The translations under genes were made by a program, and so were the position numbers. A model generated the notes under the pieces. It was not told the DNA's origin, made no database searches, and saw only the letters and a list, made by a program, of their open reading frames with translations. 64,000 bases of DNA, from positions 30,602 to 94,601 of the forward strand of contig CAKPJO010000001.1 in assembly GCA_934162685.1 (NCBI GenBank). Direction: 5' to 3'. The stretch is from an uncultured Bacilli bacterium (GTDB taxonomy: Bacteria; Bacillota_I; Bacilli_A; RFN20; CAG-826). Of this stretch, positions 11,692 through 33,135 are shown piece after piece (position 1 is the stretch's first letter; every line of letters begins with the position of its first letter).

Positions 11692-11747
11692 AAGACCTCT
11701 TTTATTTAGTGGAACTTGTGCGTAAAAAGCATAAGTTCTTTTTTTAC

Positions 11748-11790: not shown

Positions 11791-11803
11791 AGGGTGATAT
11801 CAA

Positions 11804-12025: not shown

Positions 12026-13031
12026 AATGAATTTTGAAAATAGAGAATATAATAAACCTTCGCAAATTGAATATGAAGGTACTTTAACTAAAAATAGGAA
12101 TCAAAGGCCTACTTGTGACCAAAAGTTTTTAGACTGGTGTGTGGCTAATGCAGAACGTTTTAGCTCTTATTATACTATGGCTAAAGCATTAGGACTTGAT
12201 GGCAGGGCTTTTCAACGTTTAATAGAAGATTATAACATTACATTAACATTTGATAGTAAAGCTGCTCATACTCCTAAATTATATCAAGATTATGACTGGT
12301 TATATAATCAAATTGTTACTTTAAATAAGTCTCGTAAGCAAGTAGCTGAAGAAAATGGCTGGACAGTTAGAGTTTTAGAAAAATGGATGGGCATTTTAGG
12401 AATTAATAGAAGAACATACCAAGATTTAAAACAAATGTCTGATAAGCAAAGAGATTTAATTAAATTCTCATTATTAGGTGACGGATGTGTTTCTGATACA
12501 GGATTTTTTATTGTGTCTCATAGTGAAAAGCAAAAAGATTATTTATATTGGAAATATGAAATGTTGAAAGATCTTTGCTCGCATGAACCGACACGATATG
12601 ATGAGAGTGTTAAAATAATTAACGGAAAAGAAGTTAATTGCGAACCATATTATAGATTTAATACTAGAAAATTAAAGGAATTGTTTAATCTTAGAGAAAT
12701 GCCAATAGAACAAATTGTTAATGATTTAGATGAATTTGGTTTGTCAATTTGGATGTTGGACGATGCTAGCCGAGATGCTTCTTGGAAGTTATGTATAGCC
12801 GCTTATCCTGAAGAAACTAGAACATTTATTGTAAATTATTTTAAGGATAAAGGTTTTTTATCTGCTAAAGTAAGGCTATATGATACAAGATATGTGGAAT
12901 TTAATGCTGACGACAGTAGAAAAATAGATGCTATAATTTTGCGTAACATTCCTCACAATTTAGACATTATACAATATAAAATTATAAATAATAGTAGAAT
13001 TAAATCACCAAGGAGGGGAAATAATGGCTAG
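12018..13031 (+). CDS. free-standing LAGLIDADG homing endonuclease with an N-terminal DNA-binding region
   Basis: Two LAGLIDADG-type motifs (LLGDGCVSD, WMLDDASRD). Located exactly at the junction that splits dnaE; overlaps both neighbours. Confidence 0.7.
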   Translation: MNRMNFENREYNKPSQIEYEGTLTKNRNQRPTCDQKFLDWCVANAERFSSYYTMAKALGLDGRAFQRLIEDYNITLTFDSKAAHTPKLYQDYDWLYNQIVTLNKSRKQVAEENGWTVRVLEKWMGILGINRRTYQDLKQMSDKQRDLIKFSLLGDGCVSDTGFFIVSHSEKQKDYLYWKYEMLKDLCSHEPTRYDESVKIINGKEVNCEPYYRFNTRKLKELFNLREMPIEQIVNDLDEFGLSIWMLDDASRDASWKLCIAAYPEETRTFIVNYFKDKGFLSAKVRLYDTRYVEFNADDSRKIDAIILRNIPHNLDIIQYKIINNSRIKSPRRGNNG

Positions 13032-14583
13032 GCGTCTTTTCCTAGATTATGTCTGGGGAAAATGCATTCAACCACAAGTAGGATACGCCTTTTCTTTGCC
13101 GCACGATATTAGTTATTCTATAGAAGCCGTCCAAGAAGCTAATTTAGCAACAAGATATAACCCTCTTTTTTGGGAATGTGCTTGCCTTTGTATCAACGCA
13201 GGAAATACGGAAACAGGATTTGAAGAAGACGATGATGAAGAGCAAGACGAGGAAGAAAAGAAAACTAAATCAGGAGCACCATCATATGGTAAAATTTCAA
13301 AAGCTTTAACCGATTGTAGGCTTCACGGTGTAAATATTGAATTTCCAAACATTAATACATCTCAAGCAGATTTCGTTCCTGATATTGAAAATAATAGTAT
13401 TTTATATAGTTTAAAGACTGTTACAAATGTGAGCGATGATTTATATTCACAAATCATTCAGAATAGACCTTATTCATCAATAGAAGATTTCTGTTCTAAA
13501 GTATCTGTTACACCAGCACAAATGTCCAGTTTAATTAAAGCTGGTTGCTTCAATTCTTTATATAAGATGTCAAGACGAGCAATTCTCTATGCTTATTTCA
13601 ATTATTTAGCAAATCAAGAAATAATCCTTAAAAAAACATTGAACTTATCTCATTTAAAGAAAGCTTTGTCTCTTGGTGAGAAATTTCCAGGTTATGAAGA
13701 TAAAATTCAATTATTATATTTTAAAGTATACATTGATAAAAATCAAAAATTAGATCCTAGTAAAGAGGCATTCTCACTTAATGCTTTATTAAATAAGAAA
13801 TGTTATAAACTCACGGAAGAATCTTGCATCAGCTTTTTCAATATGAAAGTTGCGCCTTCATTAGATTTAAGAAAAGGTGATTATGATTATTTAGATGGAC
13901 ACACAATATTATTAAAAGCATCAAGCTTTACAAAATTCTATGATGCTCAAATGAAAGAATTAACTGATTATCTAAATTCTGAACAAGGTAAATTAGTATT
14001 TCAAAAAATGGAAAAAGATGCTTTTATAAAAGATCTTATTGAAAAATACGCAGAAGGAACCGAAGCTGACTGGGATATGCAAACAATGAATTTTTATCAA
14101 TCTGAACACGCACTTGCTAGAATGTCCGAAATAAAGTATAACATTAAGAATTTTAATAAATTACCAGAAACGCCTATAACACGTAAGTATATAGGTAAAG
14201 ACGGAGAAGAAAAAGAGACAGCTGAAACTTGTGCAATATGTGGTACAGTTGTAGATGCTAATAATGTTAAACACGTGGTAAGTTTATTAACTAAGTATGG
14301 AGTGGTTAATGTTAAATTATTCTCACAAGCATATTCTAATTTTAGTCAAAAGATAAGTATTGTTGAAGATGCCGCCAAAAAGAAGAAAACAGTTTTAGAC
14401 GACTCTTGGTTTAAAAGAGGAACGAAATTAATTATTCACGGGTTCAGAAGAGAAAATATGTTTGTTGCTAAAACTGAATATGTTAATAAAGTTCCTAAAA
14501 TGGTAGGATTAATAGAAAGTTTAGATACAAACGGAAATGCTTCTATTAGATACACAAGAAAGAAGAAAATTAGTCAAGAATAA
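13024..14583 (+). CDS. dnaE: DNA polymerase III alpha (DnaE-like) C-terminal cistron; fingers/HhH/beta-binding region
   Basis: [32 protein letters not shown] aligns with DnaE [46 protein letters not shown] aligns with GLKILPPDINSG. Continues the alignment where 3721..7479 stops. Confidence 0.75.
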   Translation: [519 protein letters not shown]

Positions 14584-14600
14584 CACTTGACTTTTTCTTT
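14572..14600 (+). terminator. intrinsic terminator whose 3' arm is the -35 of P4
   Basis: AGTCAAGaataacaCTTGACT plus T5. Confidence 0.6.
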
Positions 14601-14625
14601 TATTTATATATAATATGGAATGTAT
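14587..14625 (+). promoter_or_regulatory. sigma-A type promoter P4 (TTGACT-16-TATAAT)
   Basis: Consensus hexamers, followed by GAAAGAAGG RBS of the helicase gene. Confidence 0.6.
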
Positions 14626-17086: not shown

Positions 17087-17665
17087 ATGGATTATGTTAC
17101 ATCAGATTTACATTTTAGACACAATCGAATTATTATATTTGAAAGAACTCAATTTAAAACCGTTGAAGAACACGATCAATATATTATAGAACAATGGAAT
17201 TCAGTTATTCAAGATCACGATAGAGTATTTGTGTTAGGGGATCTTGGATTTAAGCCTTTTGCAGATTTAGGTAAACTTGTTAAGCAATTAAAAGGACATA
17301 AAATTTTAGTTAAAGGAAATCACGATCAAATGGTTGTGGGAGACGCAATTAATATGGGTTTTGAAATGATGTATGACCATCCTATTTATTATAATACACA
17401 CATAATATTATCTCACGAACCTGTAAAAGAAGCGTGGGATAATCCTTATGTTTATAATATTCACGGGCATTGTCATAACTTTCAAACTATTGACGCACCT
17501 AATTTTGTAAATGTTAATATTGCCACCACTGATTATAAGCCAATTCCTATGGCACAATTTGTATCTAAAGCTAATTTAAGATGTAAATCAAGAAAAGAAA
17601 AATGGGAAACCGAATGGTATTGTCCATATTTATTAAAAAAAGAGCAAGATAGTCGCAATAAGTGA
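17087..17665 (+). CDS. calcineurin-like metallophosphoesterase
   Basis: Motifs DLHF, VFVLGDLGF, VKGNHD, IHGHCH. Confidence 0.7.
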   Translation: MDYVTSDLHFRHNRIIIFERTQFKTVEEHDQYIIEQWNSVIQDHDRVFVLGDLGFKPFADLGKLVKQLKGHKILVKGNHDQMVVGDAINMGFEMMYDHPIYYNTHIILSHEPVKEAWDNPYVYNIHGHCHNFQTIDAPNFVNVNIATTDYKPIPMAQFVSKANLRCKSRKEKWETEWYCPYLLKKEQDSRNK

Positions 17666-17685
17666 AAAAATTGCGACTTTTTCTT
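17651..17685 (+). terminator. intrinsic terminator (AGTCGCAA...TTGCGACT plus T5)
   Basis: 8-bp stem hairpin then T-run, immediately followed by P5. Confidence 0.6.
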
Positions 17686-17693
17686 CTTTTTCT

Positions 17694-17740
17694 ATTGACT
17701 TTTAAATATATTCTAGTATTATTAATAATGTAAAAGGGAG
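17694..17740 (+). promoter_or_regulatory. sigma-A type promoter P5 (TTGACT; weaker -10; TAATAATGTAAAAGGGAGG)
   Basis: -35 consensus and downstream AATGTAA box. Confidence 0.45.
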
Positions 17741-17748
17741 GTATTATT

Positions 17749-18030
17749 ATGTTACCAATAACAGAAGTTAAACGCATTGTCAAAAAAGAAATTGAAAGGT
17801 TAGGTTACGGATGTAAAGAAATAGAATCTAAGTCAACAACATCAGTATATTATAAAATCTATTTTGGTGAAGCAAATATGATTTTTAGAATTGCTGACCA
17901 TAAAGGAAAACAAGATATTATTACTTTACGTATTGATAAAAAAACCACACCTGAAACGATTAAACAATTTGCTAAAAATCGTATTAAAGATTTAGCATGG
18001 CGTAAGACTAAAATGACACTTGGCTTGTAA
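17749..18030 (+). CDS. hypothetical basic protein
   Basis: RBS AAAGGGAGG. Confidence 0.5.
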   Translation: MLPITEVKRIVKKEIERLGYGCKEIESKSTTSVYYKIYFGEANMIFRIADHKGKQDIITLRIDKKTTPETIKQFAKNRIKDLAWRKTKMTLGL

Positions 18031-18045
18031 AGGAGGTATAGCAAA

Positions 18046-19296
18046 ATGGCAGAAGAAGAATACAAGCGTGCATTAGCACATGTCGAAAAAGTAGTAGATA
18101 TTCAACCTATTGAAGGAGCAGATCGAATTGTTCTTGCAACTATTTTAGGTTGGAAAGTAGTAGTTAAAAAAGATGAATTTAAGGTAGGAGATTTAGCAGT
18201 TTATGTGGAAATTGACTCTGTTTTACCTGCCGATGATGTGAGATTTGAGTTTTTAAAGAGCAAAGATTATCGCATCAAAACAATGAAACTAAACAAATTC
18301 AAAGTGTTTAGTCAAGGAATTGCGTTCCACGTTAACGAATTTCCAGAAATTAAAAATCCTGCTGAAGGAATGGATGTGACAGAGGTTCTAAAGATTACGA
18401 AATATGAACCATATGAACCACCAGTTAAATCTCTTTCTTACAAAGAAGCTAAAAATAAGAGAATGTTTGCTCGACATCCTAAATTTTTCCAAAGTAAATT
18501 TGGTAAATTTGTCAGAAAACATCCTACTTTATTAAAGATATTTGAACATTTCTGGGGCGGCAAAAATATTAAACCTAAGAAATTCCCTGATTGGATTAGA
18601 AGAACTGACGAAATCAGATGTGAAAATATTGCAAATATTTGTTCTTATAAAAAACCGCTTTTAGTAACGTGTAAAGTTGATGGTTCAAGTACAACTTTTG
18701 CATTAAGATTTAAGAATGAAAAACATAAGAAATATGAAATATTTGTATGTTCTCGTAATGTGCGTATGTTAACCGAAACACAATCTTGTTACTTTGAAAC
18801 AAACGTATATTATGAAATGTTTAAAAAATATGATGTTGAAGAATTCTTAAAGGCAACAGCAAATCTGTTACAAGCAGACTTTGTTATTTTACAAGGTGAA
18901 ACATATGGCGATAAATTACAAGGAAATCCTTATAAAATGGATTATGTTGATTTTAGAGGTTATAACTTAATTTATGGTTATATGGAAGGAACAAAGCAAT
19001 TTAAAGCAAATGTTAATAACCCACTATATCATAGAGTAGGAGACACTATTCAAACACGCATCAATAGTATTAAAGCTAAAGAAATGTGTGAAATTCATGA
19101 TATTAAATGGGTTCCAATTTTAGAAGAGAACTTCATTCTTCCTGATACAATGGAAGAATTAAAACAACAAGCTACTGGAGCATCAGTTATTAATCCTAAA
19201 GTATTAAGAGAAGGACTTGTTTATCGTTCAACGACTGATCCAGAGTTCTCATTTAAAAATGTTTCAAGAGAATATTTACTAAGCAAGGGGGAATAA
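18046..19296 (+). CDS. ATP-dependent RNA ligase-like protein (nucleotidyltransferase KxDG family)
   Basis: Motif I CKVDGSS, motif IV-like REGLVYR, C-terminal Lys motif; N-terminal nucleic-acid-binding-like domain. Confidence 0.55.
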   Translation: MAEEEYKRALAHVEKVVDIQPIEGADRIVLATILGWKVVVKKDEFKVGDLAVYVEIDSVLPADDVRFEFLKSKDYRIKTMKLNKFKVFSQGIAFHVNEFPEIKNPAEGMDVTEVLKITKYEPYEPPVKSLSYKEAKNKRMFARHPKFFQSKFGKFVRKHPTLLKIFEHFWGGKNIKPKKFPDWIRRTDEIRCENIANICSYKKPLLVTCKVDGSSTTFALRFKNEKHKKYEIFVCSRNVRMLTETQSCYFETNVYYEMFKKYDVEEFLKATANLLQADFVILQGETYGDKLQGNPYKMDYVDFRGYNLIYGYMEGTKQFKANVNNPLYHRVGDTIQTRINSIKAKEMCEIHDIKWVPILEENFILPDTMEELKQQATGASVINPKVLREGLVYRSTTDPEFSFKNVSREYLLSKGE

Positions 19297-19300
19297 AACT

Positions 19301-20485
19301 ATGTGGCATAGAAAGAATTCTGTCTATTTAGACGGAGCTTCTAATACCCCTGTTGATCCAAAAGTATTTAAAGCAATGCGTCCATATTTAACTGGGCGCT
19401 TTGTTGGTAATACCGCTTCAACACATGAATTTGGTGAAAAAGCATTTACAGTATTAGAGACTGGTAGAGATAAACTAAGTAAATTAATAGGATGCGAACC
19501 TGATGAAATTTATTTCACATCTGGAGCAACCGAAGGTAATAACTGGGTTATTCAAGGATTAGCGTTGCACGAAAAAATTTATAATAATATGAAAAAAAAC
19601 CATATCATTGTATCTTGTGTGGAACATTCTTCTATATTAAATACTTGCAAAGAACTTGAAAAATGGGGTTTTGAAGTTGATTATTTACCAATTAATAAAA
19701 AGCGTGGTGGAGTTGTCACCGCTGCAACTTTAAAACAACATTTGAGGCAAACAACTTTATTAGTATGTATTATGGCGGTCAATAACGAAATTGGTTCTAA
19801 TAATACCATTGCTGCTTTAGGAAGAGTGGTACAAAAGAGTAATGCTTTCTTCTTATGTGATTGTACTCAAGCATTGTCATATGGTGGCAAAGATATGAAA
19901 ATAGCAGAAAGATTTTATAACATTGATTATTTAACTTTCTCAGGACATAAGATATATGGTCCAACTGGGACAGGTTGTTTAATTGCTCGTAAAAGAGCTC
20001 CATTATATTGTATGATACACGGAGGATCTCAAGAAAGTGGTTTGCGGGGTGGAACAATTAACTTAGTAGGTGTTGTAGGTTTAATAGAAGCTTATTCGCA
20101 AATGTCTAAACATGATTATTTTGAACATTATGCGTCATTATATGAATATCTTTTAAAAAGAATTAAAGAAGAAAATTTGCCTATTGTTCTGAACGTGGAA
20201 CCAACAGTTTATTCAATTATTAGTATCAGATTAGAAACCGATAAAATAGCTTTTTCTGAAAATTACACATTTGCTGATGCGCTAGCGGTACAAGGAATTG
20301 CTTGTTCTTCCACCTCAGCTTGTGATGAAAAAGATCCTGATGAACATCATTTGTCTCATGTATTAAAAGCTTTAGGTTTGTCAAACTTGGATATTGCACG
20401 ATCTGCAAGATTATCTTTTACAAAATATAATACTACAAAAGACATAGATTTATTAATAAAAGCGGTCAAAAAAATCATTGCTTAA
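19301..20485 (+). CDS. cysteine desulfurase (class V aminotransferase, NifS/IscS/Csd-like)
   Basis: PLP-lysine motif SGHKIYGPTGTGCL, HSSILNTC, C-terminal active-site region SSTSACDE. Confidence 0.7.
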   Translation: MWHRKNSVYLDGASNTPVDPKVFKAMRPYLTGRFVGNTASTHEFGEKAFTVLETGRDKLSKLIGCEPDEIYFTSGATEGNNWVIQGLALHEKIYNNMKKNHIIVSCVEHSSILNTCKELEKWGFEVDYLPINKKRGGVVTAATLKQHLRQTTLLVCIMAVNNEIGSNNTIAALGRVVQKSNAFFLCDCTQALSYGGKDMKIAERFYNIDYLTFSGHKIYGPTGTGCLIARKRAPLYCMIHGGSQESGLRGGTINLVGVVGLIEAYSQMSKHDYFEHYASLYEYLLKRIKEENLPIVLNVEPTVYSIISIRLETDKIAFSENYTFADALAVQGIACSSTSACDEKDPDEHHLSHVLKALGLSNLDIARSARLSFTKYNTTKDIDLLIKAVKKIIA

Positions 20486-20497
20486 AAACAGTTAGAA

Positions 20498-20540
20498 AAT
20501 GCTAGAAAATTTTCAAAAATAAAAAAACTCTAGCATTTTC
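20498..20540 (+). terminator. hairpin terminator (AATGCTAGA...TCTAGCATT)
   Basis: 9-bp stem with a long loop and a short T-run. Confidence 0.4.
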
Positions 20541-20599
20541 ACATTATTTTAATAAAACTATGACAAAAATAATATATTTATTATTTTTATAAAAAACAC

Positions 20600-20645
20600 T
20601 TGATTTTAAAAATTATTTTGCTATAATAAATAGTGAAGAAAGGAG
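20600..20645 (+). promoter_or_regulatory. sigma-A type promoter P6 (TTGATT-17-TATAAT-AAATAGTGAAG)
   Basis: Family consensus. Confidence 0.55.
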
Positions 20646-20656
20646 ATTAAAATTTT

Positions 20657-21268
20657 ATGGGATTAGACATCGGTTTTAGAGTATGGGACAAAACTCCCGA
20701 AGGCAGATTAGTCGAGCATAAGTTATCGGAGGCTGACTACTGGAATTCTGGTTCTTGTGGTAGATGTGAAATGAACTATGCTTGGAATTATGGATGCAAG
20801 GATGATTATGAAAAAAAGATTTATTCTTCACCTGTGTTTTCTAAAGAGTTTGACGGATATTCACAAACAGAAGATGATTCTGTTGGAAACAGCTGGACCA
20901 ATAAATATGTATATGTTGACTTTGAAGATTTTAGAAAAGTTATTAATGCTAAAATTGAACAAGTTGAGAAAGAACATTCTGATTGGAGCCTTCGTTTATT
21001 AAGAGAGCAAGCTAATATGAAACACGAAATCAAAGAGTATCGTGACCTTCAATTAAAATGCACTGAAGCAAATGCTTATGCCTTCGATCGTTTCCAAGAA
21101 GAGATTAATAAACTTAAAGAAGCAATTGCATATAGTGAAGAAACATATCGTAATCTTGATGAAGAAGATTATGATTATTCAAAAGCTATGGCTTGCAAGC
21201 GTATGCTTGAATTAATGGACAAGTTTATTAAAGAAGGATATGTCGTTACAACATATTATTCTGATTAA
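20657..21268 (+). CDS. hypothetical protein with a coiled-coil C-terminal half
   Basis: RBS AAGGAG. Confidence 0.5.
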   Translation: MGLDIGFRVWDKTPEGRLVEHKLSEADYWNSGSCGRCEMNYAWNYGCKDDYEKKIYSSPVFSKEFDGYSQTEDDSVGNSWTNKYVYVDFEDFRKVINAKIEQVEKEHSDWSLRLLREQANMKHEIKEYRDLQLKCTEANAYAFDRFQEEINKLKEAIAYSEETYRNLDEEDYDYSKAMACKRMLELMDKFIKEGYVVTTYYSD

Positions 21269-21305
21269 TAAATAGTAAAAAACAAAAAAGGAGAATTGTA
21301 ATTTA

Positions 21306-21788
21306 ATGAGTCGTAAACGTTTTGATGATGATGAAGATTTCTATGAACCTCGTAACAAGAAAAAAACTAAAAAAGGTCGCACAGGACTAGGAGAGCAATT
21401 TGCTAGCATCAATGAGAATACCGAAGATGTATTTGAAAATACTAACACTGTAACATTTGGAAGATTTTGTTCTAACGATCAAAGAAAGAATAAAACTTTC
21501 GTACAACCTGCTCCTGCTCCTAAAAAGGTTGAAACTCCAAGATACTCCCCTCAACCTAATAAGACACCTATTCCTACTAACATCTTAAGAGTTAACAACA
21601 GAGACATAGATCTTACAACTGCTAAAGGCATCTTTAAACAACCTGACGAGTTATCATTATTAATTAAATATAATGATGGTTCAGAAGAAGTTATATCTTT
21701 CAAAGATAAGAACTTCACAACAAAGATGTTCTATAGAGCATTAGGTTTCATTAAAAATCAAAAAAGAATTAATAAAGAGAGAAAGTAA
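21306..21788 (+). CDS. basic hypothetical protein
   Basis: RBS AAGGAG; lysine-rich N-terminus. Confidence 0.5.
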   Translation: MSRKRFDDDEDFYEPRNKKKTKKGRTGLGEQFASINENTEDVFENTNTVTFGRFCSNDQRKNKTFVQPAPAPKKVETPRYSPQPNKTPIPTNILRVNNRDIDLTTAKGIFKQPDELSLLIKYNDGSEEVISFKDKNFTTKMFYRALGFIKNQKRINKERK

Positions 21789-21807
21789 AAATTCTCTCTT
21801 TTTTTTC
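21776..21807 (+). terminator. intrinsic terminator (AGAGAGAA...TTCTCTCT plus T8)
   Basis: Stem plus long T-run; runs into the P7 -35. Confidence 0.65.
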
Positions 21808-21850
21808 TTGACTTTTATAAATAATCCGCTATACTAGTATTGTAAATCAA
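21808..21850 (+). promoter_or_regulatory. sigma-A type promoter P7 (TTGACT-16-TATACT)
   Basis: Family consensus. Confidence 0.55.
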
Positions 21851-21904
21851 AAAAAGTGCTAAATAAAATTACCATTTTATTTTAGCGGAAAGGAAGGAAA
21901 ATTT

Positions 21905-22093
21905 ATGTTATTTATACTTTTATTAGATCTGTTAGTGGGACTTGCAATTATTTTATTGTTACCTGCTGTAGCAATCTTATGGATAGGAGCGTTCACAGCT
22001 ATACCTGCATGGCTTAATATTACTTGCTTGTCTGTTATCACTTTTATTTCATTAATAATTTTAATTGGCTTATTGGTGTCTGATCGCAACTAA
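21905..22093 (+). CDS. small hydrophobic membrane protein
   Basis: RBS GGAAAGGAAGG; two TM segments. Confidence 0.5.
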   Translation: MLFILLLDLLVGLAIILLLPAVAILWIGAFTAIPAWLNITCLSVITFISLIILIGLLVSDRN

Positions 22094-22112
22094 AGAAAAG
22101 AGGAAAACAAAA

Positions 22113-22430
22113 ATGAATGACAATATTATGAAAATTGATGATTTAACAAATACACTTGTGCTTGTGGCTTTTAAAGACAAGACAACAGCAAATGGCTGGT
22201 TAGTACGTGATGATAAGAAAAAAGGAAAATATCTTATTTTATCATGTTTTGATAATAAGATCACCTCTTTCTCTTTATCACACATCAAATATCTTGCTTA
22301 TATAAATGGAGCTTGCTTTTTTAAATACCAAGGGAAAAATATTTTTAAAGTGGTATATATGCCAAATGAATTATCTTACGAGTCATACGGAAAACTTCAA
22401 AGACTTGCAGAAACAGGAGAGTTAGATTAA
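22113..22430 (+). CDS. hypothetical protein
   Basis: ATG at 22113 with AAAGAGGAAA RBS. The ORF-track start 22065 overlaps the membrane ORF. Confidence 0.45.
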   Translation: MNDNIMKIDDLTNTLVLVAFKDKTTANGWLVRDDKKKGKYLILSCFDNKITSFSLSHIKYLAYINGACFFKYQGKNIFKVVYMPNELSYESYGKLQRLAETGELD

Positions 22431-22431
22431 T

Positions 22432-22758
22432 ATGTGGAAATATAATAATGAACGTTTTATAGTGTTAGACACAGGAGATATCATTGATACTTGTTCTTGG
22501 GGTTGCCAAGGCTGGGGAATGAATTATCAAACTAACATAGAAATTAAAGGTAACAAAGTATATGTCACTTACTGGACCGCAGGCGATTATGATTATAATG
22601 ACGAGTTTGATAAACTATTTCTTGGTAACATTGTTTATAGTTCTAATAAACCTTTCTTAGTCAAAGAGTCTGTTCTGTCAAGAACTCCGACAATTACCTA
22701 TGATGAATATAATTTAGACCTATCAGACTTCATAGGAGAGATACGAGGCAATGAGTAA
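22432..22758 (+). CDS. hypothetical protein
   Basis: Coupled (TAATATG). Confidence 0.5.
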   Translation: MWKYNNERFIVLDTGDIIDTCSWGCQGWGMNYQTNIEIKGNKVYVTYWTAGDYDYNDEFDKLFLGNIVYSSNKPFLVKESVLSRTPTITYDEYNLDLSDFIGEIRGNE

Positions 22759-22987
22759 CAAAAGTGTTATTAGCATTCAACCTTCTGAAAAAGAACTCTG
22801 GGATAAAGCTAACGCACAAGGTTATGTGTGGATTAAATCTGATACTGGGTTTATTACAAAAGATGAATTGGATACTTATAGTAGATTAGAAACCGTATGG
22901 TATAAAGTATGGCTACATCAAGAAGACTATGGCTCTAAATGGGCTCTAACAAGGGAGGAGTTAGAAAATGGATACAAACTTAATTAA
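22751..22987 (+). CDS. hypothetical protein with C-terminal W-ALTREELE motif
   Basis: Paralogous C-terminus to 23614..23985. Confidence 0.5.
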   Translation: MSNKSVISIQPSEKELWDKANAQGYVWIKSDTGFITKDELDTYSRLETVWYKVWLHQEDYGSKWALTREELENGYKLN

Positions 22988-23234
22988 AATTGAATTCACC
23001 TACAGGCAATGGGAAACAATATTAGACACTATACAACATGAATATTGGGAAAATAGGGAATTTTATGATGAATTAAAAGCTATTAGTTCCGAATTTTTAT
23101 CAAAGTTAGATGATCGAGGATTAGAAGCATATAAAAATCAATTAAATTATGTGAAAAACATTGTAGAGCAAAAGCAAGAAATCATATCTGTGATTAAAAA
23201 AGAATTAAAGAAAGAGGTATTAAAAAATGGTTGA
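22968..23234 (+). CDS. hypothetical protein
   Basis: Overlapping start. Confidence 0.45.
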   Translation: MDTNLIKIEFTYRQWETILDTIQHEYWENREFYDELKAISSEFLSKLDDRGLEAYKNQLNYVKNIVEQKQEIISVIKKELKKEVLKNG

Positions 23235-23595
23235 AATAATTACTAAAAATAATGAAGTTTTAGGATTTAATTATATAATTTATCCACTGGCATCTGATAA
23301 TTATAAATATGGAATTGCTTGTTTTGATTATGTTAATAGATATAACACATATTTTCTTTTAGAAGATGTTAAATCAGTAAAAAAAACAGTAAAAGATTTA
23401 ACTATTTATGAAATGCAAAAGCTTAACATTTACATGAACACTAATAATGAAATATTTCAATTTGATAAAGCTAAAAATATCTCCACTAAATTAAAAATGA
23501 CTGATTTTATAGATATTAAGCAATGTATTAAAGATTGCTTTAAAAGATTTGAAATGATTTTGACACAAACACAAGATGATTATTATATTGATTAA
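23227..23595 (+). CDS. hypothetical protein
   Basis: Overlapping start. Confidence 0.45.
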   Translation: MVEIITKNNEVLGFNYIIYPLASDNYKYGIACFDYVNRYNTYFLLEDVKSVKKTVKDLTIYEMQKLNIYMNTNNEIFQFDKAKNISTKLKMTDFIDIKQCIKDCFKRFEMILTQTQDDYYID

Positions 23596-23613
23596 TAAAG
23601 AAAGGTAAAAATT

Positions 23614-23985
23614 ATGAAAAGATTAATAAAAAGAACTTTATATGATAGAGAAAAGCATTATGGTTCAATAGAGATTCCTTATGATGATTTAAATTATTTG
23701 AAATTAGTATATGATAAATTAGGTAAAGTAGAAGATATAGAAGAAGAGATTGGTATTGATTTAGTTACTTTGTTCAAAGCACAAATGCAAGACAAAATTT
23801 ATTATAAGGATGTTTTATCAAATTGTAAAATTAAAGGATGTTATGTCGCTTATGGCACAAAAGGTCATATATTAGGAAAGCCTGTATATGCCCTTGTATT
23901 ACATAACAACAATGGCTTCAGTGCTATTGTATATGCAAGTGATTATGGTACAACTTGGGCGTTAACTAAGGAGGAATTAGAATAA
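23614..23985 (+). CDS. hypothetical protein with C-terminal WALTKEELE motif
   Basis: RBS AAAGGTAAAAATT; paralog of 22751. Confidence 0.5.
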   Translation: MKRLIKRTLYDREKHYGSIEIPYDDLNYLKLVYDKLGKVEDIEEEIGIDLVTLFKAQMQDKIYYKDVLSNCKIKGCYVAYGTKGHILGKPVYALVLHNNNGFSAIVYASDYGTTWALTKEELE

Positions 23986-24119
23986 TGTATTTAATAGATT
24001 GGGTTCAAAAATGGGCTGAGATAGAAACAATTGGCGCATATATTAGTTATGGAATATTAGGATTAGCATTAATATTATGTATAATATACATTATTATATG
24101 TTCAATTAATAAATATTAA
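23985..24119 (+). CDS. tiny membrane peptide (44 aa)
   Basis: TAATG overlap with the previous gene, GGAGG RBS, single TM helix. Confidence 0.35.
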   Translation: MYLIDWVQKWAEIETIGAYISYGILGLALILCIIYIIICSINKY

Positions 24120-24135
24120 AAGAGGAGTTAAAATA

Positions 24136-24351
24136 ATGGCTTATTTAAAAGTTTGGATGTTAGATAAAATAATAGTACAATCTGAAATCAGCGATGATTA
24201 CGCAGATCAAATGATAGCTAACTATAAAAAATGTTATGAAAATTATGAAATACATAAAGATAATACTGATGCTGGCGCTTTAATTGAAGACACAGTGTTC
24301 AGATTTAATAATATGCGTGTCATTATAACAAAGGAGGGACCAGAGCGATGA
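24136..24351 (+). CDS. hypothetical protein
   Basis: RBS AGAGGAG. Confidence 0.45.
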   Translation: MAYLKVWMLDKIIVQSEISDDYADQMIANYKKCYENYEIHKDNTDAGALIEDTVFRFNNMRVIITKEGPER

Positions 24352-24542
24352 ATATTCAATGGCAGAATTTATACAATACAATATACAATACGTTAAATAA
24401 GAGACAAGTGAAAGAATTAGCTCTAGCATTAGTAGTTTTACAAGACGGAATTGATAAACTTTCAGAATTAGATAAATTATCTGATATATATAATTTCAAA
24501 GATATGAAAGAATTAGAAAAATTATTGAAAGGAAGCAAATGA
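24348..24542 (+). CDS. hypothetical protein
   Basis: ATGA overlap. Confidence 0.45.
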   Translation: MNIQWQNLYNTIYNTLNKRQVKELALALVVLQDGIDKLSELDKLSDIYNFKDMKELEKLLKGSK

Positions 24543-24967
24543 AAATGAAAAATAAAAAAGAATTATTAAATGATATGCTGTTCTCTTTCAAATATGTGTT
24601 TGTCTATGAAGGATTATTACAGTTAGATGGAAACAGCGATCAACCTTTGCAAAATTGTTGGTTAGTGCTTTTCATCAACAGTCTAAGAGAAGCAAAAACA
24701 GAATATACGGATTATTATACTCTTACTGATTTAAAAAATTTTAATAAACAATTTGAGCAAATAAATGCAATGACAGATATATATGATACTTTCAAAGTGT
24801 TTGATAGACATACTATTATTTGGCAGATGCTAGTACAAATGTTTGGTAACTATGGCGAAAGTCCTAGAACAGGATGGATCGACCAAAAAACCGAATGTGC
24901 TGACTTTTTACAATCGTTGATAACTGAGGATGGAGACGCAAAATGGATAACAAAGAATTTGTTTTAG
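24539..24967 (+). CDS. hypothetical protein
   Basis: ATGA overlap. Confidence 0.5.
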   Translation: MKMKNKKELLNDMLFSFKYVFVYEGLLQLDGNSDQPLQNCWLVLFINSLREAKTEYTDYYTLTDLKNFNKQFEQINAMTDIYDTFKVFDRHTIIWQMLVQMFGNYGESPRTGWIDQKTECADFLQSLITEDGDAKWITKNLF

Positions 24968-25215
24968 AAGTATTAAAAAGAATTCTTCCTGATACCAGTT
25001 GGTGGGGAGAATCTAATCACGATGCAAAATCAATGGAGAATATAGAACTATTAGAGGATATGTTTGATATTATGTTAAACGAACTTTTACAAGATGCCTA
25101 TGTTCCAGAAGGAAATAAAGGAATGAGTAGTTTTGAGTCTATTGCAAAAGCAAAACAAGAAGTTATAGCTAATATCAGATATTGGTTACCAAGCAAAGAA
25201 GAGGATGAAGGCTAG
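24943..25215 (+). CDS. hypothetical protein
   Basis: Overlapping start. Confidence 0.45.
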   Translation: MDNKEFVLEVLKRILPDTSWWGESNHDAKSMENIELLEDMFDIMLNELLQDAYVPEGNKGMSSFESIAKAKQEVIANIRYWLPSKEEDEG

Positions 25216-25756
25216 TATGGAATTTAAAGTAGAAATATTAAAATACCCAAAAGAAGAAGATTTACTTTGGTGTAAACAATGTTGTTTAAATACAATAGGA
25301 AAATCAACAACAAAACAACCTACTGAAGAATGGTTGGTTAAACTTGTAGAGGCTGAGCATAGTCCAATGAGAGAACTTTGGTTTGGCATCAAAATGACTA
25401 TTCCTTACTATATTTCAAATCATTTCATACGCCATCATATAGGGGTTAATCATTATGTTCAATCTCAAAGAAATGATAGACAAACTAATTATGATCGAAC
25501 TAAGGCCCCTCAAGATGCAATGGTAAGTCATATTATGTCTATTAATGCTCAAGAATTGGTATTCATGGCACATAAGAGATTATGCAATCAAGCAAGTCCT
25601 GAAACGCATTTAATAATGCAAACAATCTGTGATGAGGTTATTAAAGTTGCACCTTATATGAAATCGGTTCTTGTACCATTATGTGTATATAGAAACAACA
25701 AATGTACTGAATTCTTCCCTTGTGCAAGAGCAAAAACTTTTAAAAATAATAACTAA
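25205..25756 (+). CDS. thyX: ThyX-like flavin-dependent thymidylate synthase (short form)
   Basis: RHHIGVNHYVQSQR aligns with the ThyX signature RHRxxxxxxQSQR. 183 aa, shorter than typical ThyX; the start may be ATG 25217. Confidence 0.45.
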   Translation: MKASMEFKVEILKYPKEEDLLWCKQCCLNTIGKSTTKQPTEEWLVKLVEAEHSPMRELWFGIKMTIPYYISNHFIRHHIGVNHYVQSQRNDRQTNYDRTKAPQDAMVSHIMSINAQELVFMAHKRLCNQASPETHLIMQTICDEVIKVAPYMKSVLVPLCVYRNNKCTEFFPCARAKTFKNNN

Positions 25757-25786
25757 AGTCAATCAAAACGGTTGACTTTTTTTTAT
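25757..25786 (+). terminator. intrinsic terminator sharing its 3' arm with the P8 -35
   Basis: AGTCAAtcaaaacggTTGACT plus T8. Confidence 0.6.
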
Positions 25787-25815
25787 AATCTTATATAATA
25801 GATATAGAAATGAGG
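25772..25815 (+). promoter_or_regulatory. sigma-A type promoter P8 (TTGACT-16-TATAAT)
   Basis: Family consensus. Confidence 0.55.
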
Positions 25816-25822
25816 TGGCAAA

Positions 25823-27187
25823 ATGCTAACAAAAGAAAAATTAGAAGAAATCGTAAGTAGACCTGAATATGATTTTCTAAGAACTAATCCTCGATTAAAG
25901 GATAAAATCTTATTCTTGACTGTCGGAGGCAGCTATGCTTACGGAACCAATGTTGAAGGTTCAGATATCGACATTAGAGGAGTTGCGATGAATAGCATCG
26001 AAGATATTTTAGGTGGTACAACATTTGAACAATTTCAAAATGATGAAACCGATACAGTTATTTATTCAGTCAATAAGTTTATTAAATTGGTAACTGATTG
26101 TAATCCTAATGTTATTGAAATGTTATTTTGTGAACCTGCTCAATACATTTGGGTATCTCCATTAGGACAATTATTATTAGATAACAAACATCTATTTTTA
26201 TCTCAAAAAGCTTATTATACCTTTGGTGGATATGCTAGAGCTCAATTAAATAGATTAGAAAATGCTTTATGTAGAGGCAATTACTTCACACAGGCACAAA
26301 AAGAAGAGCACATTGCAAGAAGTGTAGAAAATTCTATTGATAGCTTTAGTGAAAAATATTCAGCAATGATACAAGGCAAAGGAAGCATCAAACTTCATAC
26401 TGATAAAGTAGATGAAAATGGCGATAGGATCATCACAACTGATATGACAATGAAAGATGTTCCTTTAAGAGAAGTTCGTTCTATGTTAGAAGAAATGACT
26501 AATATTGTAAGAGATTATGACAAGTCTGGTGGCTGGAGAAATACTAAGAAAGATATTCCGCACTTAAACAAGCATATTATGCATCTAGTAAGACTATATT
26601 ACATGGGTATTGAAATTCTAGAAACTGGTGCTTTACATACTTATAGAAGTAAAGAACATCAATTATTAATGAGCATCAGAAGTGGATTATTCTTAGACGA
26701 AAAGAATAATTTAAAACCTGAATTTTACACCGTATTAAATGATTTAGAAAATAAGTTAAAAACAGCTTTAGATAATAGTAAATTACCTAAAAAAGCTAGA
26801 CGAGATGAAATCAAACAATTACAAATTAAAATTAATTTATTAATGATTAAAATGGGTGCCTATAAAGAATATATCTTGACTGAGTTTGATTTAGATGAAA
26901 AAGAAAAAGTTGTTAATAATAAAAACTATAAAATTACCTTATCTGAAATTTTAAGTATGAACCCAAGCTATACTGCAATTCATTGTGATACCGAAGAAAA
27001 AGCCAATAAATTATTAACAATTTTAAATAAATTAGGACAAAAATGGATTAGTGGAGAATCATATTTAATAAATAACAACTGGAGGTCATACAAAACCCAA
27101 ACTTGTTATGGCTTAGATGGATCATATGGAATTTCTAAATGGTACGATGATGTTTACGAATTCGATGATATTGATTTAAATAATTAA
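25823..27187 (+). CDS. Pol-beta-superfamily nucleotidyltransferase fused to a C-terminal AIHCDT...YEFDDIDL domain (family member 4)
   Basis: NTase signature GGSYAYGTNVEGSDIDI (GS...DxD). C-terminal 90 aa AIHCDTEEKANKLL...LGQKW...TCY...VYEFDDIDL. Confidence 0.6.
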   Translation: MLTKEKLEEIVSRPEYDFLRTNPRLKDKILFLTVGGSYAYGTNVEGSDIDIRGVAMNSIEDILGGTTFEQFQNDETDTVIYSVNKFIKLVTDCNPNVIEMLFCEPAQYIWVSPLGQLLLDNKHLFLSQKAYYTFGGYARAQLNRLENALCRGNYFTQAQKEEHIARSVENSIDSFSEKYSAMIQGKGSIKLHTDKVDENGDRIITTDMTMKDVPLREVRSMLEEMTNIVRDYDKSGGWRNTKKDIPHLNKHIMHLVRLYYMGIEILETGALHTYRSKEHQLLMSIRSGLFLDEKNNLKPEFYTVLNDLENKLKTALDNSKLPKKARRDEIKQLQIKINLLMIKMGAYKEYILTEFDLDEKEKVVNNKNYKITLSEILSMNPSYTAIHCDTEEKANKLLTILNKLGQKWISGESYLINNNWRSYKTQTCYGLDGSYGISKWYDDVYEFDDIDLNN

Positions 27188-27207
27188 TTAATAAAAGGAG
27201 AATAAAA

Positions 27208-27600
27208 ATGAGAAAAAAATTAGTAAAAATACTTACACCAAATACAAAAAGAGGAATTGACAATTTAATAGAATTAGCAAAAAAAGAAGGTCACGATAAA
27301 ATTAGTGATATAAGAATTTCTTTTAACGGGAATAGAGACATACTACATTGGAACGATGAAGATGTGACAGTTACTATCACATTAATAGGTAAATATAGAT
27401 TGAAAAGTCGTGGGACAGGATATCGTTTTGCAGCCACACTTACTGTTTTTAGTGATATAGAAGCTTATTATCTAGACTGTCTTAAATATGATTTTAATCA
27501 AGAAGAACGCGAAGTTGAATTAAGCATCAAAGAATATAATGATGAAAAATATGTTATTTGTGAAAATTATCGTGAAATAGATTTAGCGTTAGGAAAATAA
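27208..27600 (+). CDS. hypothetical protein
   Basis: RBS AAGGAG. Confidence 0.5.
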   Translation: MRKKLVKILTPNTKRGIDNLIELAKKEGHDKISDIRISFNGNRDILHWNDEDVTVTITLIGKYRLKSRGTGYRFAATLTVFSDIEAYYLDCLKYDFNQEEREVELSIKEYNDEKYVICENYREIDLALGK

Positions 27601-27606
27601 AATTTT

Positions 27607-29073
27607 ATGGAAAGAAAAGATATTGAACAACTTATAAAATACACTTTACCAACTGAGGTATTCACAATCTTTAACACTTTAGAAAATAAAGGTTTTGAAA
27701 CTTATTTAGTGGGCGGAAGTGTGAGAGACATGTGCTTCAATGCTATTTTTCACGACAATAAAGACGCTCGTTATCGTAACGTTCACGATTTTGATTTTGC
27801 AACCGCTGCTCTTCCTGAAGAAATTATAGAAGTTTTTAAAGATTATGAAGTAATTCCAACTGGGTTAAAACACGGCACTGTTACAGTCAGGATCAACCAT
27901 CAAAATTTTGAAATAACAACATTCAGAATAGATGGTAAATATGACGATTTTCGTCATCCTAACTCTGTATCATTCACCAGATCTATAGAAGAAGATTTGA
28001 GCCGTCGCGACTTCACAATGAACGCTATTGCTTATAGTCCAACAAGAGGTTTAGTCGATCCTTTTAATGGTATTGGAGATCTTGATAATATAAGATGTGT
28101 TGGAGACCCAACCCAAAGATTTCGAGAAGATCCTTTAAGAATTCTTAGAGCATCACGCTTTGCTCTTCAATTTATGATACCTATTGAAATCAATACATAT
28201 GAAGCTGCTCAACAAAACGTGAATTTAATTCATCATTTATCAAAAGAAAGAGTAACTGATGAATTCAAAAAAATGTTAAATATCGATCCTTTAAACATTA
28301 CTTATTCTATATTTAGAACTTATTATGGCTTTATTTTAGAAGAATACTTTCCAACATTAAAAGAATACGCAAATTTTCGTCCTACTTTGAATAAAGAACC
28401 TCAAATTTGGAATAAATATCTTCGTATACAAGACCATCAAGTTAATGTGTTTTTAAGAGTGAGATATTTATATCCAATGTTTGATTTTGCTCTTTATTTG
28501 GCTGCTTTATGTCACGACTTAGGAAAACAAAATGCAGAAACAGTAACTCTAACAGACGACAAAATTAAAATATATCATTATTATAGACATCCAGAAGAAA
28601 GTCTTAAAATTTTTGAACAAGAAGTATTGCCTCGTTTATCATTATCAAAAAGAGAAATTGACGAAGCCAGAACATTAATTTTATATCATGATATGCGTAT
28701 TGCCCCTACTAAAAAATCAGTAAAAAAAGCTTTACAAAAAATGTCCCCATTAATGTTATCTTTATTATTTAAATTGCAAGAAGCTGACCTTGATGACCAT
28801 GAATTTGCTAATTTATTAAGAAAGAAAAATACATATCGTGATTTATATGTGACACAATACATCGCCTCAGAAATTCATAAAGATATTCAAGAATGCTTCA
28901 CCATAAAACAACTTAAAATCAATGGTAGAGACCTTCTAAATTTAGGAATAGAACCAGGCCCCAAAATTGGTAAAATTCTTAAAGAATTATTAAAGAAAGT
29001 TATTGATGAAGAGATTCAAAATGATCCTAGGTCTCTCTTACAATATGCACAACATTTAGCCACAAAAGAATGA
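27607..29073 (+). CDS. cca: CCA-adding enzyme / tRNA nucleotidyltransferase (class II, with HD domain)
   Basis: Head motifs LVGGSVRDMCF and RRDFTMNAIAY. HD-like LCHDLGK in the C-terminal half. Confidence 0.7.
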   Translation: MERKDIEQLIKYTLPTEVFTIFNTLENKGFETYLVGGSVRDMCFNAIFHDNKDARYRNVHDFDFATAALPEEIIEVFKDYEVIPTGLKHGTVTVRINHQNFEITTFRIDGKYDDFRHPNSVSFTRSIEEDLSRRDFTMNAIAYSPTRGLVDPFNGIGDLDNIRCVGDPTQRFREDPLRILRASRFALQFMIPIEINTYEAAQQNVNLIHHLSKERVTDEFKKMLNIDPLNITYSIFRTYYGFILEEYFPTLKEYANFRPTLNKEPQIWNKYLRIQDHQVNVFLRVRYLYPMFDFALYLAALCHDLGKQNAETVTLTDDKIKIYHYYRHPEESLKIFEQEVLPRLSLSKREIDEARTLILYHDMRIAPTKKSVKKALQKMSPLMLSLLFKLQEADLDDHEFANLLRKKNTYRDLYVTQYIASEIHKDIQECFTIKQLKINGRDLLNLGIEPGPKIGKILKELLKKVIDEEIQNDPRSLLQYAQHLATKE

Positions 29074-29076
29074 AAA

Positions 29077-29107
29077 AGTTAAGATTAATATCTTGACTTT
29101 TTTTTAT
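29077..29107 (+). terminator. intrinsic terminator sharing its 3' arm with the P9 -35
   Basis: AAGTTAAGATtaatATCTTGACTT plus T8. Confidence 0.6.
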
Positions 29108-29135
29108 ATTTCTCTATAATAAATAGTGTAAGAAA
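29094..29135 (+). promoter_or_regulatory. sigma-A type promoter P9 (TTGACT-15-TATAAT-AAATAGTGTAAG)
   Basis: Family consensus. Confidence 0.6.
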
Positions 29136-32457: not shown

Positions 32458-33135
32458 ATGTCTAACTCAGCAATACATCAATCAAATAATAAACAACAAA
32501 CCAAACAAACCGCACGTCACCCAAAGCGCGGTCAATATAAAGACTACTCTCAACCGCTCAACGGTATGACCCTCGAACAGTCCAACAAACTTGTCACAGA
32601 TAATATGGCACTCGTCTTCTGGGTCTTAAAAGAGAAATTTCACTTTGATCCTTCCACGATGCAAGATTATGAAGATGTTGTATCTCTCGGAATGCAAGGG
32701 TTAGTCATCGCAGCACGCTGTTATGACTCTTCCACAGGTTATAGTTTTTCAACCTATGCAACACATTGCATCTCCTCTCAAATTCACTCAGAGTATTTCC
32801 GACGTAATCAAACACTCAAAGCAACACCCGAGATAGCCCCCGCTTACCTCGATGCTCCCCTCCCTCTTGAGACAGATCACGGAGCTAAGAAAACACTTCT
32901 TGATCTTCTCCCAGCATCACCTTCTTCAGATCCTTCCTTCACCCAGGACGCCCACACCATAATGGACTTCATAATTAATAATCCCGTCCCCAACAAATCC
33001 ACCCTCCTCTCCTATCTCCAAGGAACCCGCATCATAGACATTGCCAAACAAGAGTCCGTCTCCACCACCTCCATCCAGAACCGCCTTAAAGTTTCTATAT
33101 CTTATCTTCGTTCCATCTTCAACCCTTCTCACTAG
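32458..33135 (+). CDS. sigma-70 family sigma factor (regions 2 and 4)
   Basis: Region 2 LGMQGLVIAARCYD...YSFSTYATHCISSQI resembles sigma-70 region 2.1-2.3 (FSTYA). C-terminal HTH IIDIAKQESVSTTSIQNRLKVSISYLR resembles region 4.2. C-rich codon usage distinct from the surrounding genes. Confidence 0.6.
   Translation: MSNSAIHQSNNKQQTKQTARHPKRGQYKDYSQPLNGMTLEQSNKLVTDNMALVFWVLKEKFHFDPSTMQDYEDVVSLGMQGLVIAARCYDSSTGYSFSTYATHCISSQIHSEYFRRNQTLKATPEIAPAYLDAPLPLETDHGAKKTLLDLLPASPSSDPSFTQDAHTIMDFIINNPVPNKSTLLSYLQGTRIIDIAKQESVSTTSIQNRLKVSISYLRSIFNPSH

Follow-up and report, generated by a model that had tools for sequence, protein, structure and literature searches.

The 64-kb stretch of contig CAKPJO010000001.1 analysed here (the window) is AT-rich phage DNA (~29% GC) and encodes, on its + strand between positions 17087 and 29073, a metallophosphoesterase (MPE), an RNA ligase, a cysteine desulfurase (CSD), an RlaP-family nucleotidyltransferase and a CCA-adding enzyme: five genes whose possible joint role in the repair of RNA ends is the subject of this work. 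The window is an exact part of a 139,469-bp metagenome contig of a human-gut phage (ENA ERZ27287164 k141_2689782), which has sister contigs of 134-142 kb from human gut samples; our analysis covered the window and ~30 kb of its flanks, and ~46 kb of the source contig lie outside this coverage. The + strand early genes form one long block from 226 to 36125, and the − strand genes, among them a head-maturation-type protease and an AAA+ ATPase, follow from 38665. As a megablast search found no GenBank phage matching the region, all comparisons were done at the protein level.

A sequence-only reading of the same DNA had grouped four of these genes as an RNA-repair set. All four ORFs proved to be real, with ATG starts on the + strand at the positions it had given, and profile searches returned the phosphoesterase, RNA ligase, Pol-beta nucleotidyltransferase and CCA/HD domains that it had assigned. 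The phosphoesterase and the ligase, described there as adjacent, are indeed near neighbours but are separated by a 93-aa ORF (17749-18030), and the interval 17087-29073, treated as one gene set, does hold the named genes, yet ~5.3 kb of it are taken up by small ORFs without relation to the set and a ThyX-like gene. Overlooked was the CSD, a class-V aminotransferase at 19301-20485 that starts 4 bases past the ligase stop. The genes in question are the following:

17087..17665, + strand: MPE, aq_1665-like, 192 aa (Pfam, PHROG, metal ligands, AF2 model)
17749..18030, + strand: orf93, small protein between MPE and ligase, without significant Pfam, PHROG or NCBIfam match
18046..19296, + strand: Rnl5-family RNA ligase, 416 aa (PHA02142 OB and RNA_ligase domains; NgrRnl match)
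19301..20485, + strand: group I (IscS/NifS/DndA-like) CSD, 394 aa (Aminotran_5, IscS)
25823..27187, + strand: RlaP-family Pol-beta nucleotidyltransferase, 454 aa (PF10127, phrog_388)
27208..27600, + strand: orf130, small protein between the RlaP and CCA genes, without Pfam, PHROG or NCBIfam match
27607..29073, + strand: class II CCA-adding tRNA nucleotidyltransferase with HD domain, 488 aa (PolyA_pol, 1miv)

Five enzymes with predicted RNA-end and sulfur chemistry

The MPE matches the PHROG family phrog_547 ("phosphoesterase") at 1.3e-39, and its match to Pfam Metallophos_2 (E 1.6e-4, 22.1 bits) lies under the gathering score of 27. It carries the five calcineurin-like motifs DxH, GD, GNHD/E, H and GHxH, and the metal-binding residues D7, H9, D52, N78, H79, D80, H110, H128 and H130 are invariant among 30 homologues. 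An AF2 model (pLDDT 94.5) and profile searches place it nearest to Aquifex aq_1665 (profile E 1.2e-30; Foldseek 1.7e-11), followed by the phosphodiesterase MJ0936 and by LpxH. Neither a PPP nor a lambda phosphatase was found in the PDB profile search or among the top Foldseek matches; the Ser/Thr protein phosphatase that the sequence-only reading had named as a possible refutation is thus not what the gene encodes, and assignments to PPP-type protein phosphatases or to Mre11-like proteins were ruled out by the fold and profile matches. The closest MPE homologue in genome assemblies (53% identity) has a CSD adjacent to it and lies on a 130,049-bp contig (CAVHCX010000004.1) binned with Clostridium sp. 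CAG:343; it resembles a related phage that was placed in the bin of a low-GC gut Firmicute, a possible hint at the host. The neighbouring orf93 is lineage-specific, being kept in the sister phage only (dN/dS 0.034).

The ligase combines an N-terminal OB domain (PF21189, PHA02142; 1.3e-26, aa 10-94) with an adenylyltransferase domain (PF09414, RNA_ligase; 1.2e-11, aa 204-404), and its closest solved relative is Naegleria NgrRnl (5cot, 1.2e-28), with an alignment that covers both domains. The sequence KVDGSS holds the motif I lysine; K210, D212, G213, S236-R237-N238, E285, E389 and K404 are invariant among eight phage homologues, and the motifs align with KLDGSS, LQGE, REGLV and SFK of NgrRnl. 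Since the score against NCBIfam TIGR02306 (DRB0094 type) is 114.3 bits at an equivalog cutoff of 151.15, we regard the protein as a divergent Rnl5 member and not as an equivalog. Pfam, structure and NCBIfam profile searches returned no Rnl1 match, so the ligase is assigned to the Rnl5 family and not to the Rnl1-type anticodon-loop ligases of the T4 route; a DNA ligase or a capping enzyme, the other conceivable identities, is likewise at odds with motifs and matches, which are those of an RNA ligase. Judged by its motifs, the ligase is an intact Rnl5-family enzyme with a predicted nick-sealing activity. The sister-phage ligase (positions 10487-10489 of its locus) has an in-frame TAA at codon 163, where the window has TTA (~18532). 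Because the dN/dS of the ligase is 0.03 in spite of this stop, the stop must be recent or an error: the gene may have been inactivated of late or divided into an OB and a catalytic half, or the base may have been misread in sequencing. Across all five genes, dN/dS against the sister phage ranges from 0.03 to 0.18.

The CSD matches Pfam Aminotran_5 at 1.3e-56 and IscS at 2.3e-81; the IscS, NifS and DndA models all score around 1e-80 and all remain under their equivalog cutoffs. Its pyridoxal phosphate (PLP) lysine, Lys217 (SGHK), and its catalytic cysteine, Cys341 (SAC), are invariant among eight phage homologues.

The nucleotidyltransferase, located 6.5 kb from the ligase on the same strand, matches PF10127 at 1.1e-19 (71.5 bits, cutoff 23) and phrog_388 at 4.2e-54, and the Pol-beta motifs GGS and SDIDIRG can be read from its sequence. 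Its RlaP core spans ~aa 1-345 and is followed by an extra C-terminal domain of ~85 aa (~aa 370-454, window 26930-27187) without Pfam match. Free-standing paralogues of this domain, of 93 and 98 aa and ~39% identical, are encoded at 11101-11376 and 11419-11685, and more of them occur in the sister phage. The adjacent orf130 is lineage-specific; elsewhere, RlaP and CCA genes abut or overlap directly.

The CCA enzyme comprises a PolyA_pol head (2.5e-33), an RNA-binding domain, tRNA_NucTran2_2 and a weakly matching HD domain (E 0.0035). Its best solved structure is the CCA-adding enzyme of G. stearothermophilus (1miv, 1.5e-45), with which the head motifs GGSVRD, DFDFAT, RRDFTMNA and REDPLRILRA align (class motifs GGxVRD, DxD, RRD and EDxxR); the score against PRK13299 is 265.3 bits at a cutoff of 290, and PcnB models score lower. 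With the E. coli-type multifunctional CCA enzyme (NF008137), whose HD domain has phosphatase activity, it shares the combination of a class II CCA head and an HD domain in one protein, whereas its head and neck are nearest to the Bacillus/Geobacillus type (1miv; PRK13299) and its HD match is weak. The HD region (aa 293-395) also matches the HD half of kinase-HD proteins (8e-6).

Gene neighbourhoods of the ligase and the cysteine desulfurase

We surveyed 81 phage loci (±10 kb) with homologous ligases, which fall into 34 clusters at 70% identity, together with 21 control phage loci (345 kb in total). An MPE was found at 28 loci (22 clusters), a polynucleotide kinase at 61 loci (22 clusters), a CSD at 22 loci (5 clusters) and RlaP at 33 loci (11 clusters) with a loose profile or at 10 loci (4 clusters) with a strict one (inclusion E 1e-8); one divergent RlaP match was confirmed as RlaP by Pfam. 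These recurring neighbours are all encoded on the ligase strand, and in the control loci the partner families are absent (0/21) except for a kinase at one of the 21. A first jackhmmer count had suggested a "CCA" neighbour at 41 of the 81 loci, but most of these hits were fusions of a kinase (AAA_33) with an HD domain, as seen with Pfam, which had been caught via the HD domain and which sit directly after the ligase. The replication genes that flank the window set (Pol III alpha, RecD2) and the small ORFs recur at one of the 81 loci only, that of the near-identical sister phage.

Linkage of the ligase clade to a kinase plus a phosphoesterase is seen in 22 of the 34 clusters. In clusters with a free-standing kinase an MPE is always present (16/16), and in 11 of these 16 the two genes touch or overlap (−21 to +10 bp); of the seven clusters where the kinase is fused to HD, only three have an MPE, and it lies kilobases away. 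MPE and HD thus seem to stand in for each other as the phosphoesterase that accompanies the kinase. The constant presence of the MPE beside free-standing kinases, mostly abutting them, marks it as a probable 3'-end healer; for a healing of RNA 3' ends by the MPE, no better evidence is available than this linkage pattern, and we infer the function for the window protein from its gene context.

A profile search with filters off, for which the profile had been built from six phage kinase-HD proteins, detected no polynucleotide kinase domain in the window, the sister contig or the 10-kb flanks of source and sister contigs. Walker A motifs occur in these stretches only in RecD2, in the AAA+ ATPase ORF (window 53820-55136) and in an AAA_24 protein. 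Only four ligase clusters have an MPE without a nearby kinase, and the window lineage is one of the four. Moreover, ARAGORN detected no tRNA gene in the window, its ~30 kb of flanks or the sister contig, and no Rfam family reached its gathering score in the window, in agreement with the earlier statement that the window lacks tRNA genes.

Centring the survey on the CSD yielded 80 phage loci in 41 clusters. The MPE is the top neighbour family in an unbiased ranking (17 clusters, in 9 of them ≤500 bp from the CSD), and a true CCA enzyme is found in 10 clusters, RlaP in 9, a ligase in 6 and a kinase in 2, so that 39 of 41 clusters lack a kinase and 35 of 41 a ligase. In 8 of the 9 clusters with RlaP, the gap from RlaP to CCA is −46 to +102 bp, and one locus (L165) shows the whole array in compact form: MPE 9319-9909, CSD 10001-11101, RlaP 11175-12197, CCA 12187-13533. 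A tight MPE→CSD→RlaP→CCA cassette therefore recurs in phages, in which a kinase is very rare and a ligase mostly missing, and the window carries a rearranged copy of it with a ligase added: MPE, orf93, Rnl5, CSD, 5.3 kb of other genes, RlaP, orf130, CCA. The contigs with the cassette range in GC from 0.29 to 0.58, and most are without a tRNA gene within ±10 kb. The sole two kinase matches at CSD loci (L153 6621-8849 and L168 1013-3250) lie in multi-domain proteins of ~745 aa, which may be Pnkp-like fusions.

Because the same families recur around ligases and around CSDs and are absent from control loci, the one kinase aside, their grouping goes beyond chance. The functional linkage of the genes, as claimed by the sequence-only reading, is borne out by this recurrence in many unrelated phages, and its theme of RNA (tRNA) end repair is the best supported one, by the linkage of kinase and phosphoesterase around the ligase and by the biochemistry of RlaP. 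Its pairing of phosphoesterase and ligase is not the most conserved one: the most conserved pairs are phosphoesterase with CSD and RlaP with CCA enzyme.

Further conserved neighbours of the CSD are radical SAM, dCMP deaminase, ERF, PD-(D/E)XK, primase and DnaB proteins and a MazF-like toxin; genes for the PemK/MazF-like toxin (e.g. L190 15257-15742) and for an MrpR-type recombinase recur near the cassette in 14 to 15 of the 41 clusters. Among GenBank phage isolates none carries the CSD cassette, and most CSD matches there look like host contamination or unannotated faecal contigs. The C. difficile phage AR1086-1, considered as a candidate, has RlaP together with KptA, RtcB and NrnB and is without MPE, CSD, Rnl5 and CCA.

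Predicted transcription units and neighbouring genes

Promoters, terminators and transcription units are given here as pattern matches. Perfect TTGACT-N15-17-TATAAT sites occur five times (0.16 expected), all of them intergenic and on the + strand (7507, 14587, 25772, 29093, 30713), and would correspond to predicted promoters of the host sigma-70 type. At three of the five, a GTCAA...TTGAC hairpin has the −35 hexamer as its 3' arm, such that terminator and promoter overlap. The features that delimit the genes of interest are:

14587..14614, + strand: promoter-like TTGACT-N16-TATAAT with its −35 inside the hairpin 14572-14592; predicted start of the RecD2/MPE/orf93/Rnl5/CSD unit
21774..21801, + strand: terminator-like hairpin with a T-run behind it, where the first unit is predicted to end
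25755..25799, + strand: perfect TTGACT-N16-TATAAT promoter that overlaps a hairpin terminator; the RlaP/orf130/CCA unit is predicted to start here
29093..29120, + strand: perfect promoter-like site; 3' boundary of the RlaP/orf130/CCA unit

The first predicted unit (14587 to 21774-21801) comprises RecD2, MPE, orf93, ligase, CSD and two small ORFs and has a weaker internal promoter at 17695; the second, between the sites at 25772 and 29093, comprises exactly RlaP, orf130 and CCA.

Several other genes of the region deserve mention in their own right. The DNA polymerase III alpha gene is seemingly split (window 3721-7479, 12018-13031 and 13024-14583): the PHP, intein/LAGLIDADG, polymerase and finger domains are in a 1252-aa ORF and the C-terminal part with HHH_6 is in another ORF of 519 aa, and the ~5.5 kb between the halves contain small ORFs and an ORF for a LAGLIDADG_2 endonuclease. 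In one sister contig (L112), the polymerase is instead followed by a 791-aa helicase. A divergent ThyX-like protein is encoded at 25205-25756, where Thy1/ThyX models match the C-terminal ~50 aa only; a sigma-70 region-2-like protein lies at 32458-33135 and a YopX-like protein at 35280-36125, and the 32-34 kb stretch, which precedes the switch to − strand genes, has a higher GC (0.39). A gene running off the window end (63344-64000, − strand; L113 7821-9491) encodes a 556-aa protein that matches the RdRP family PF05183 (QDE-1/YonO-like two-barrel RNA polymerase), which suggests a putative phage single-subunit RNA polymerase.

Proposed pathway, rival explanations and known systems

We consider it about an even chance (roughly 0.5) that MPE, Rnl5, CSD, RlaP and CCA/HD form a kinase-less phage set for RNA-end repair that acts on host tRNAs, chiefly by rebuilding their 3' ends. 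The toolkit would be expressed from two early sigma-70-type units. Repair would be initiated by the MPE, perhaps assisted by the HD domain of the CCA enzyme, which, as the gene context suggests, would strip a blocking 3'-phosphate, 2',3'-cyclic phosphate or similar group. RlaP would then restore one or two lost nucleotides at the freed 3'-OH: the P. fluorescens and P. aeruginosa proteins add 1-2 nucleotides (NMP) to RNA 3'-OH ends, prefer damaged tRNA and do not act on DNA (PMC12776372). In the next step the CCA enzyme, given its strong homology, would rebuild the CCA tail. Finally, by homology to DraRnl and NgrRnl, the ligase may close nicks in base-paired regions, as Rnl5 enzymes, whose physiology is largely unknown, seal 3'-OH/5'-phosphate nicks in duplexes and require a ribonucleotide 3'-OH (PMC5397189). 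The first three steps need neither a kinase nor a ligase and hence fit damage at the tRNA 3' end, whereas the rejoining of anticodon halves in the T4 manner fits less well. Candidate damage would be the loss of the last four nucleotides to HEPN toxins, cuts in the acceptor stem, unwanted 3' extensions or pyrophosphorylation, the last being what toxSAS toxins do to the tRNA CCA end. Such damage is known: a HEPN toxin removes the last four nucleotides of some tRNAs and MenT/AbiEii toxins extend tRNA 3' ends, and toxSAS toxins are listed among those that target tRNA (PMC10435456). The gene set may serve counter-defence, a purpose that we infer.

Several observations weigh against this proposal. 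In the window, 5.3 kb separate the two gene groups, which belong to different predicted units amid a block of replication genes, and with a profile restricted to the head domain only three of 34 clusters (4 loci) have a true CCA enzyme no more than 10 kb from the ligase. The MPE family has no characterised member, and the nearest structures of the MPE are the uncharacterised aq_1665 and then MJ0936; in an MPE-centred scan of bacterial genome contigs, partners lie near only 9 of 80 homologues, in heterogeneous neighbourhoods, so that repair cannot be the specific task of the entire MPE family. The founding Rnl5 enzyme, DraRnl, has its in vivo role in DNA repair (PMC5397189). A kinase or tRNA genes could lie in the uncovered ~46 kb of the 139-kb contig. 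The CSD, finally, has no obvious place in the pathway: a thiolation partner (PP-loop ATPase, ThiI, MnmA, TusA or IscU) was not found among its conserved neighbours, and that it restores the thiolation of repaired tRNA via host MnmA or ThiI, or supplies Fe-S clusters, are our guesses.

The T4-like logic invoked by the sequence-only reading is incomplete here for want of a 5' kinase in the window or flanks. In its full form an anticodon nuclease would cut the tRNA, the phosphoesterase would heal the 3' end, the ligase would rejoin the halves, RlaP would replace an excised wobble base and the CCA enzyme would tidy the 3' end. Such a pathway is in line with the position of the ligase clade next to a kinase, a phosphoesterase (MPE or HD) and RlaP in many phages, it agrees with the proposal of RlaP as an antidote to RloC-type toxins (PMC12776372, PMC7824862), and it could assign to the CSD the re-thiolation of the replaced wobble uridine. 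We nevertheless hold it to be unlikely: with no kinase in the window or its ~30 kb of flanks, adenylylation is not possible for the 5'-OH ends that PrrC, RloC and colicin-type nucleases leave behind and 5'-OH tRNA halves could not be sealed as in T4, the ligase is a duplex nick sealer of the Rnl5 family and not an Rnl1, and the CSD cassette does without a kinase in 39 of 41 clusters and without a ligase in 35 of 41. If, alternatively, Rnl5 and MPE served DNA replication or repair by processing ribonucleotide-containing nicks or blocked DNA ends, the remaining genes would be unrelated neighbours. The genes do follow Pol III alpha and RecD2 directly, probably within one transcription unit, DraRnl promotes genome reassembly after irradiation (PMC5397189), and the MPE has a weak match to the ligase-associated DNA-damage enzyme PdeM and to the P. 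putida nuclease MPE. These matches, however, are far under the family thresholds (22.6 bits against a PdeM cutoff of 150; E 0.002 for the nuclease), the replication neighbours are kept at one of 81 ligase loci whereas RNA-end enzymes recur, Rnl5 needs a ribonucleotide 3'-OH (PMC5397189) and RlaP is inactive on DNA (PMC12776372), all of which makes a role in DNA metabolism distinctly improbable.

Two further explanations dispense with a toxin or with a module altogether. The phage might simply boost host CCA repair, thiolation and end trimming to sustain translation, for instance in frameshift control or late tRNA turnover. CCA enzyme and CSD are activities of the housekeeping type, the cassette occurs in phages of widely differing GC, and the predicted host-type promoters are compatible with such upkeep; since RlaP, kinase/phosphoesterase pairs and RNA ligases, to which the genes are linked, are damage-repair enzymes, the mending of inflicted breaks is favoured (PMC12776372), and we consider general upkeep improbable. 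That five independent accessory genes came together by chance in the early region would accord with the distance between the two groups and their separate predicted units, and with bacterial MPE homologues that mostly lack partners. It is already disfavoured and highly improbable, as the reciprocal surveys, whether begun from the ligase or from the CSD, lead to the same partners in dozens of clusters, encoded on one strand and frequently abutting, against none of the 21 controls (kinase 1).

Within the preferred reading of 3'-end repair, a more specific version can be formulated: MPE→CSD→RlaP→CCA could be a dedicated, hitherto undescribed phage pathway for rebuilding tRNA acceptor ends destroyed or blocked by HEPN/MNT, MenT/AbiE and CapRel-type toxins, in which the CSD would perform a repair-coupled sulfur transfer that re-thiolates or marks the repaired tRNA, by analogy to Hen1. 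We consider this version unlikely. If the sulfur-transfer role were true, the cassette would be the first repair system to join RNA end repair to sulfur chemistry; more generally, if the set acts as proposed, a viral answer to the growing class of tRNA-3'-end toxins would be identified, the uncharacterised aq_1665-type phosphoesterases would be assigned a function, and RlaP and Rnl5, both of uncertain physiology, would gain a natural test setting.

The general idea of such gene sets is not new. Burroughs and Aravind reportedly predicted phage RNA-repair gene sets by comparative genomics in 2016, as cited by a later survey. In the accessible part of that line of work, phage sets of ATP-dependent RNA ligase, RlaP, CCA enzyme and phosphoesterase are likewise predicted by comparative genomics and proposed to reverse host attack on tRNA (Iyer et al. 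2021, PMC7824862). The window shares these four components with the sets described there, but it has no kinase, its ligase is an Rnl5 where the accessible part of the survey names RtcB, Rnl1 and Rnl2, its phosphoesterase is an aq_1665-like MPE in place of a HAD or 2H enzyme, and it has a conserved CSD, which goes unmentioned in that part. T4 is almost the only phage whose RNA repair has been worked out by experiment, and the ligase/RlaP/CCA sets of the comparative surveys, as far as their accessible text goes, always include a kinase; from the present locus and its relatives, a kinase-less cassette seems to emerge that is widespread (29% to 58% GC) and would mend RNA 3' ends rather than rejoin halves. 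That a CSD travels with it is explained by no current model and finds no mention as a repair-set member in the searchable literature, which does not cover Burroughs and Aravind 2016, so that an earlier description of the cassette is possible. The CSD-containing kinase-less cassette is a concrete, testable lead.

Set against individual systems, the same differences emerge. T4 Pnkp/Rnl1 repairs tRNA-Lys cut by PrrC (summarised in PMC12776372), and the window shares with it the logic of end healing followed by sealing of host tRNA, T4 also having an RlaP homologue (NrdC.11); in the window, however, the kinase is missing, the phosphatase is of the MPE and not the HAD type, the ligase is Rnl5 and not Rnl1, and a CCA enzyme and a CSD are present. 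With DraRnl and NgrRnl the window ligase has in common the layout of an N-terminal OB and a C-terminal adenylyltransferase domain and the catalytic Lys, Asp, Glu, Glu and Lys; it is longer (416 aa versus ~340), carries an extra linker insert of ~50 aa and an insert within the nucleotidyltransferase domain, and is phage-encoded and tied to RNA-end enzymes; DraRnl, by contrast, has a DEDDh exonuclease-like gene as its partner and serves DNA repair. In bacterial Pnkp/Hen1 (cited in PMC12776372), kinase, MPE and ligase are fused in one Pnkp protein, so that the kinase is always present, and Hen1 is a methyltransferase. Both systems pair a calcineurin-type phosphoesterase with an RNA ligase, and the coupling to Hen1 offers a possible analogy for the CSD, although neither a kinase nor Hen1 was found at the window locus. 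What sets the window apart from the known sets is consequently its Rnl5 ligase, its aq_1665-type phosphoesterase, the absence of a kinase, the tight RlaP→CCA pairing of its cassette and the conserved CSD.

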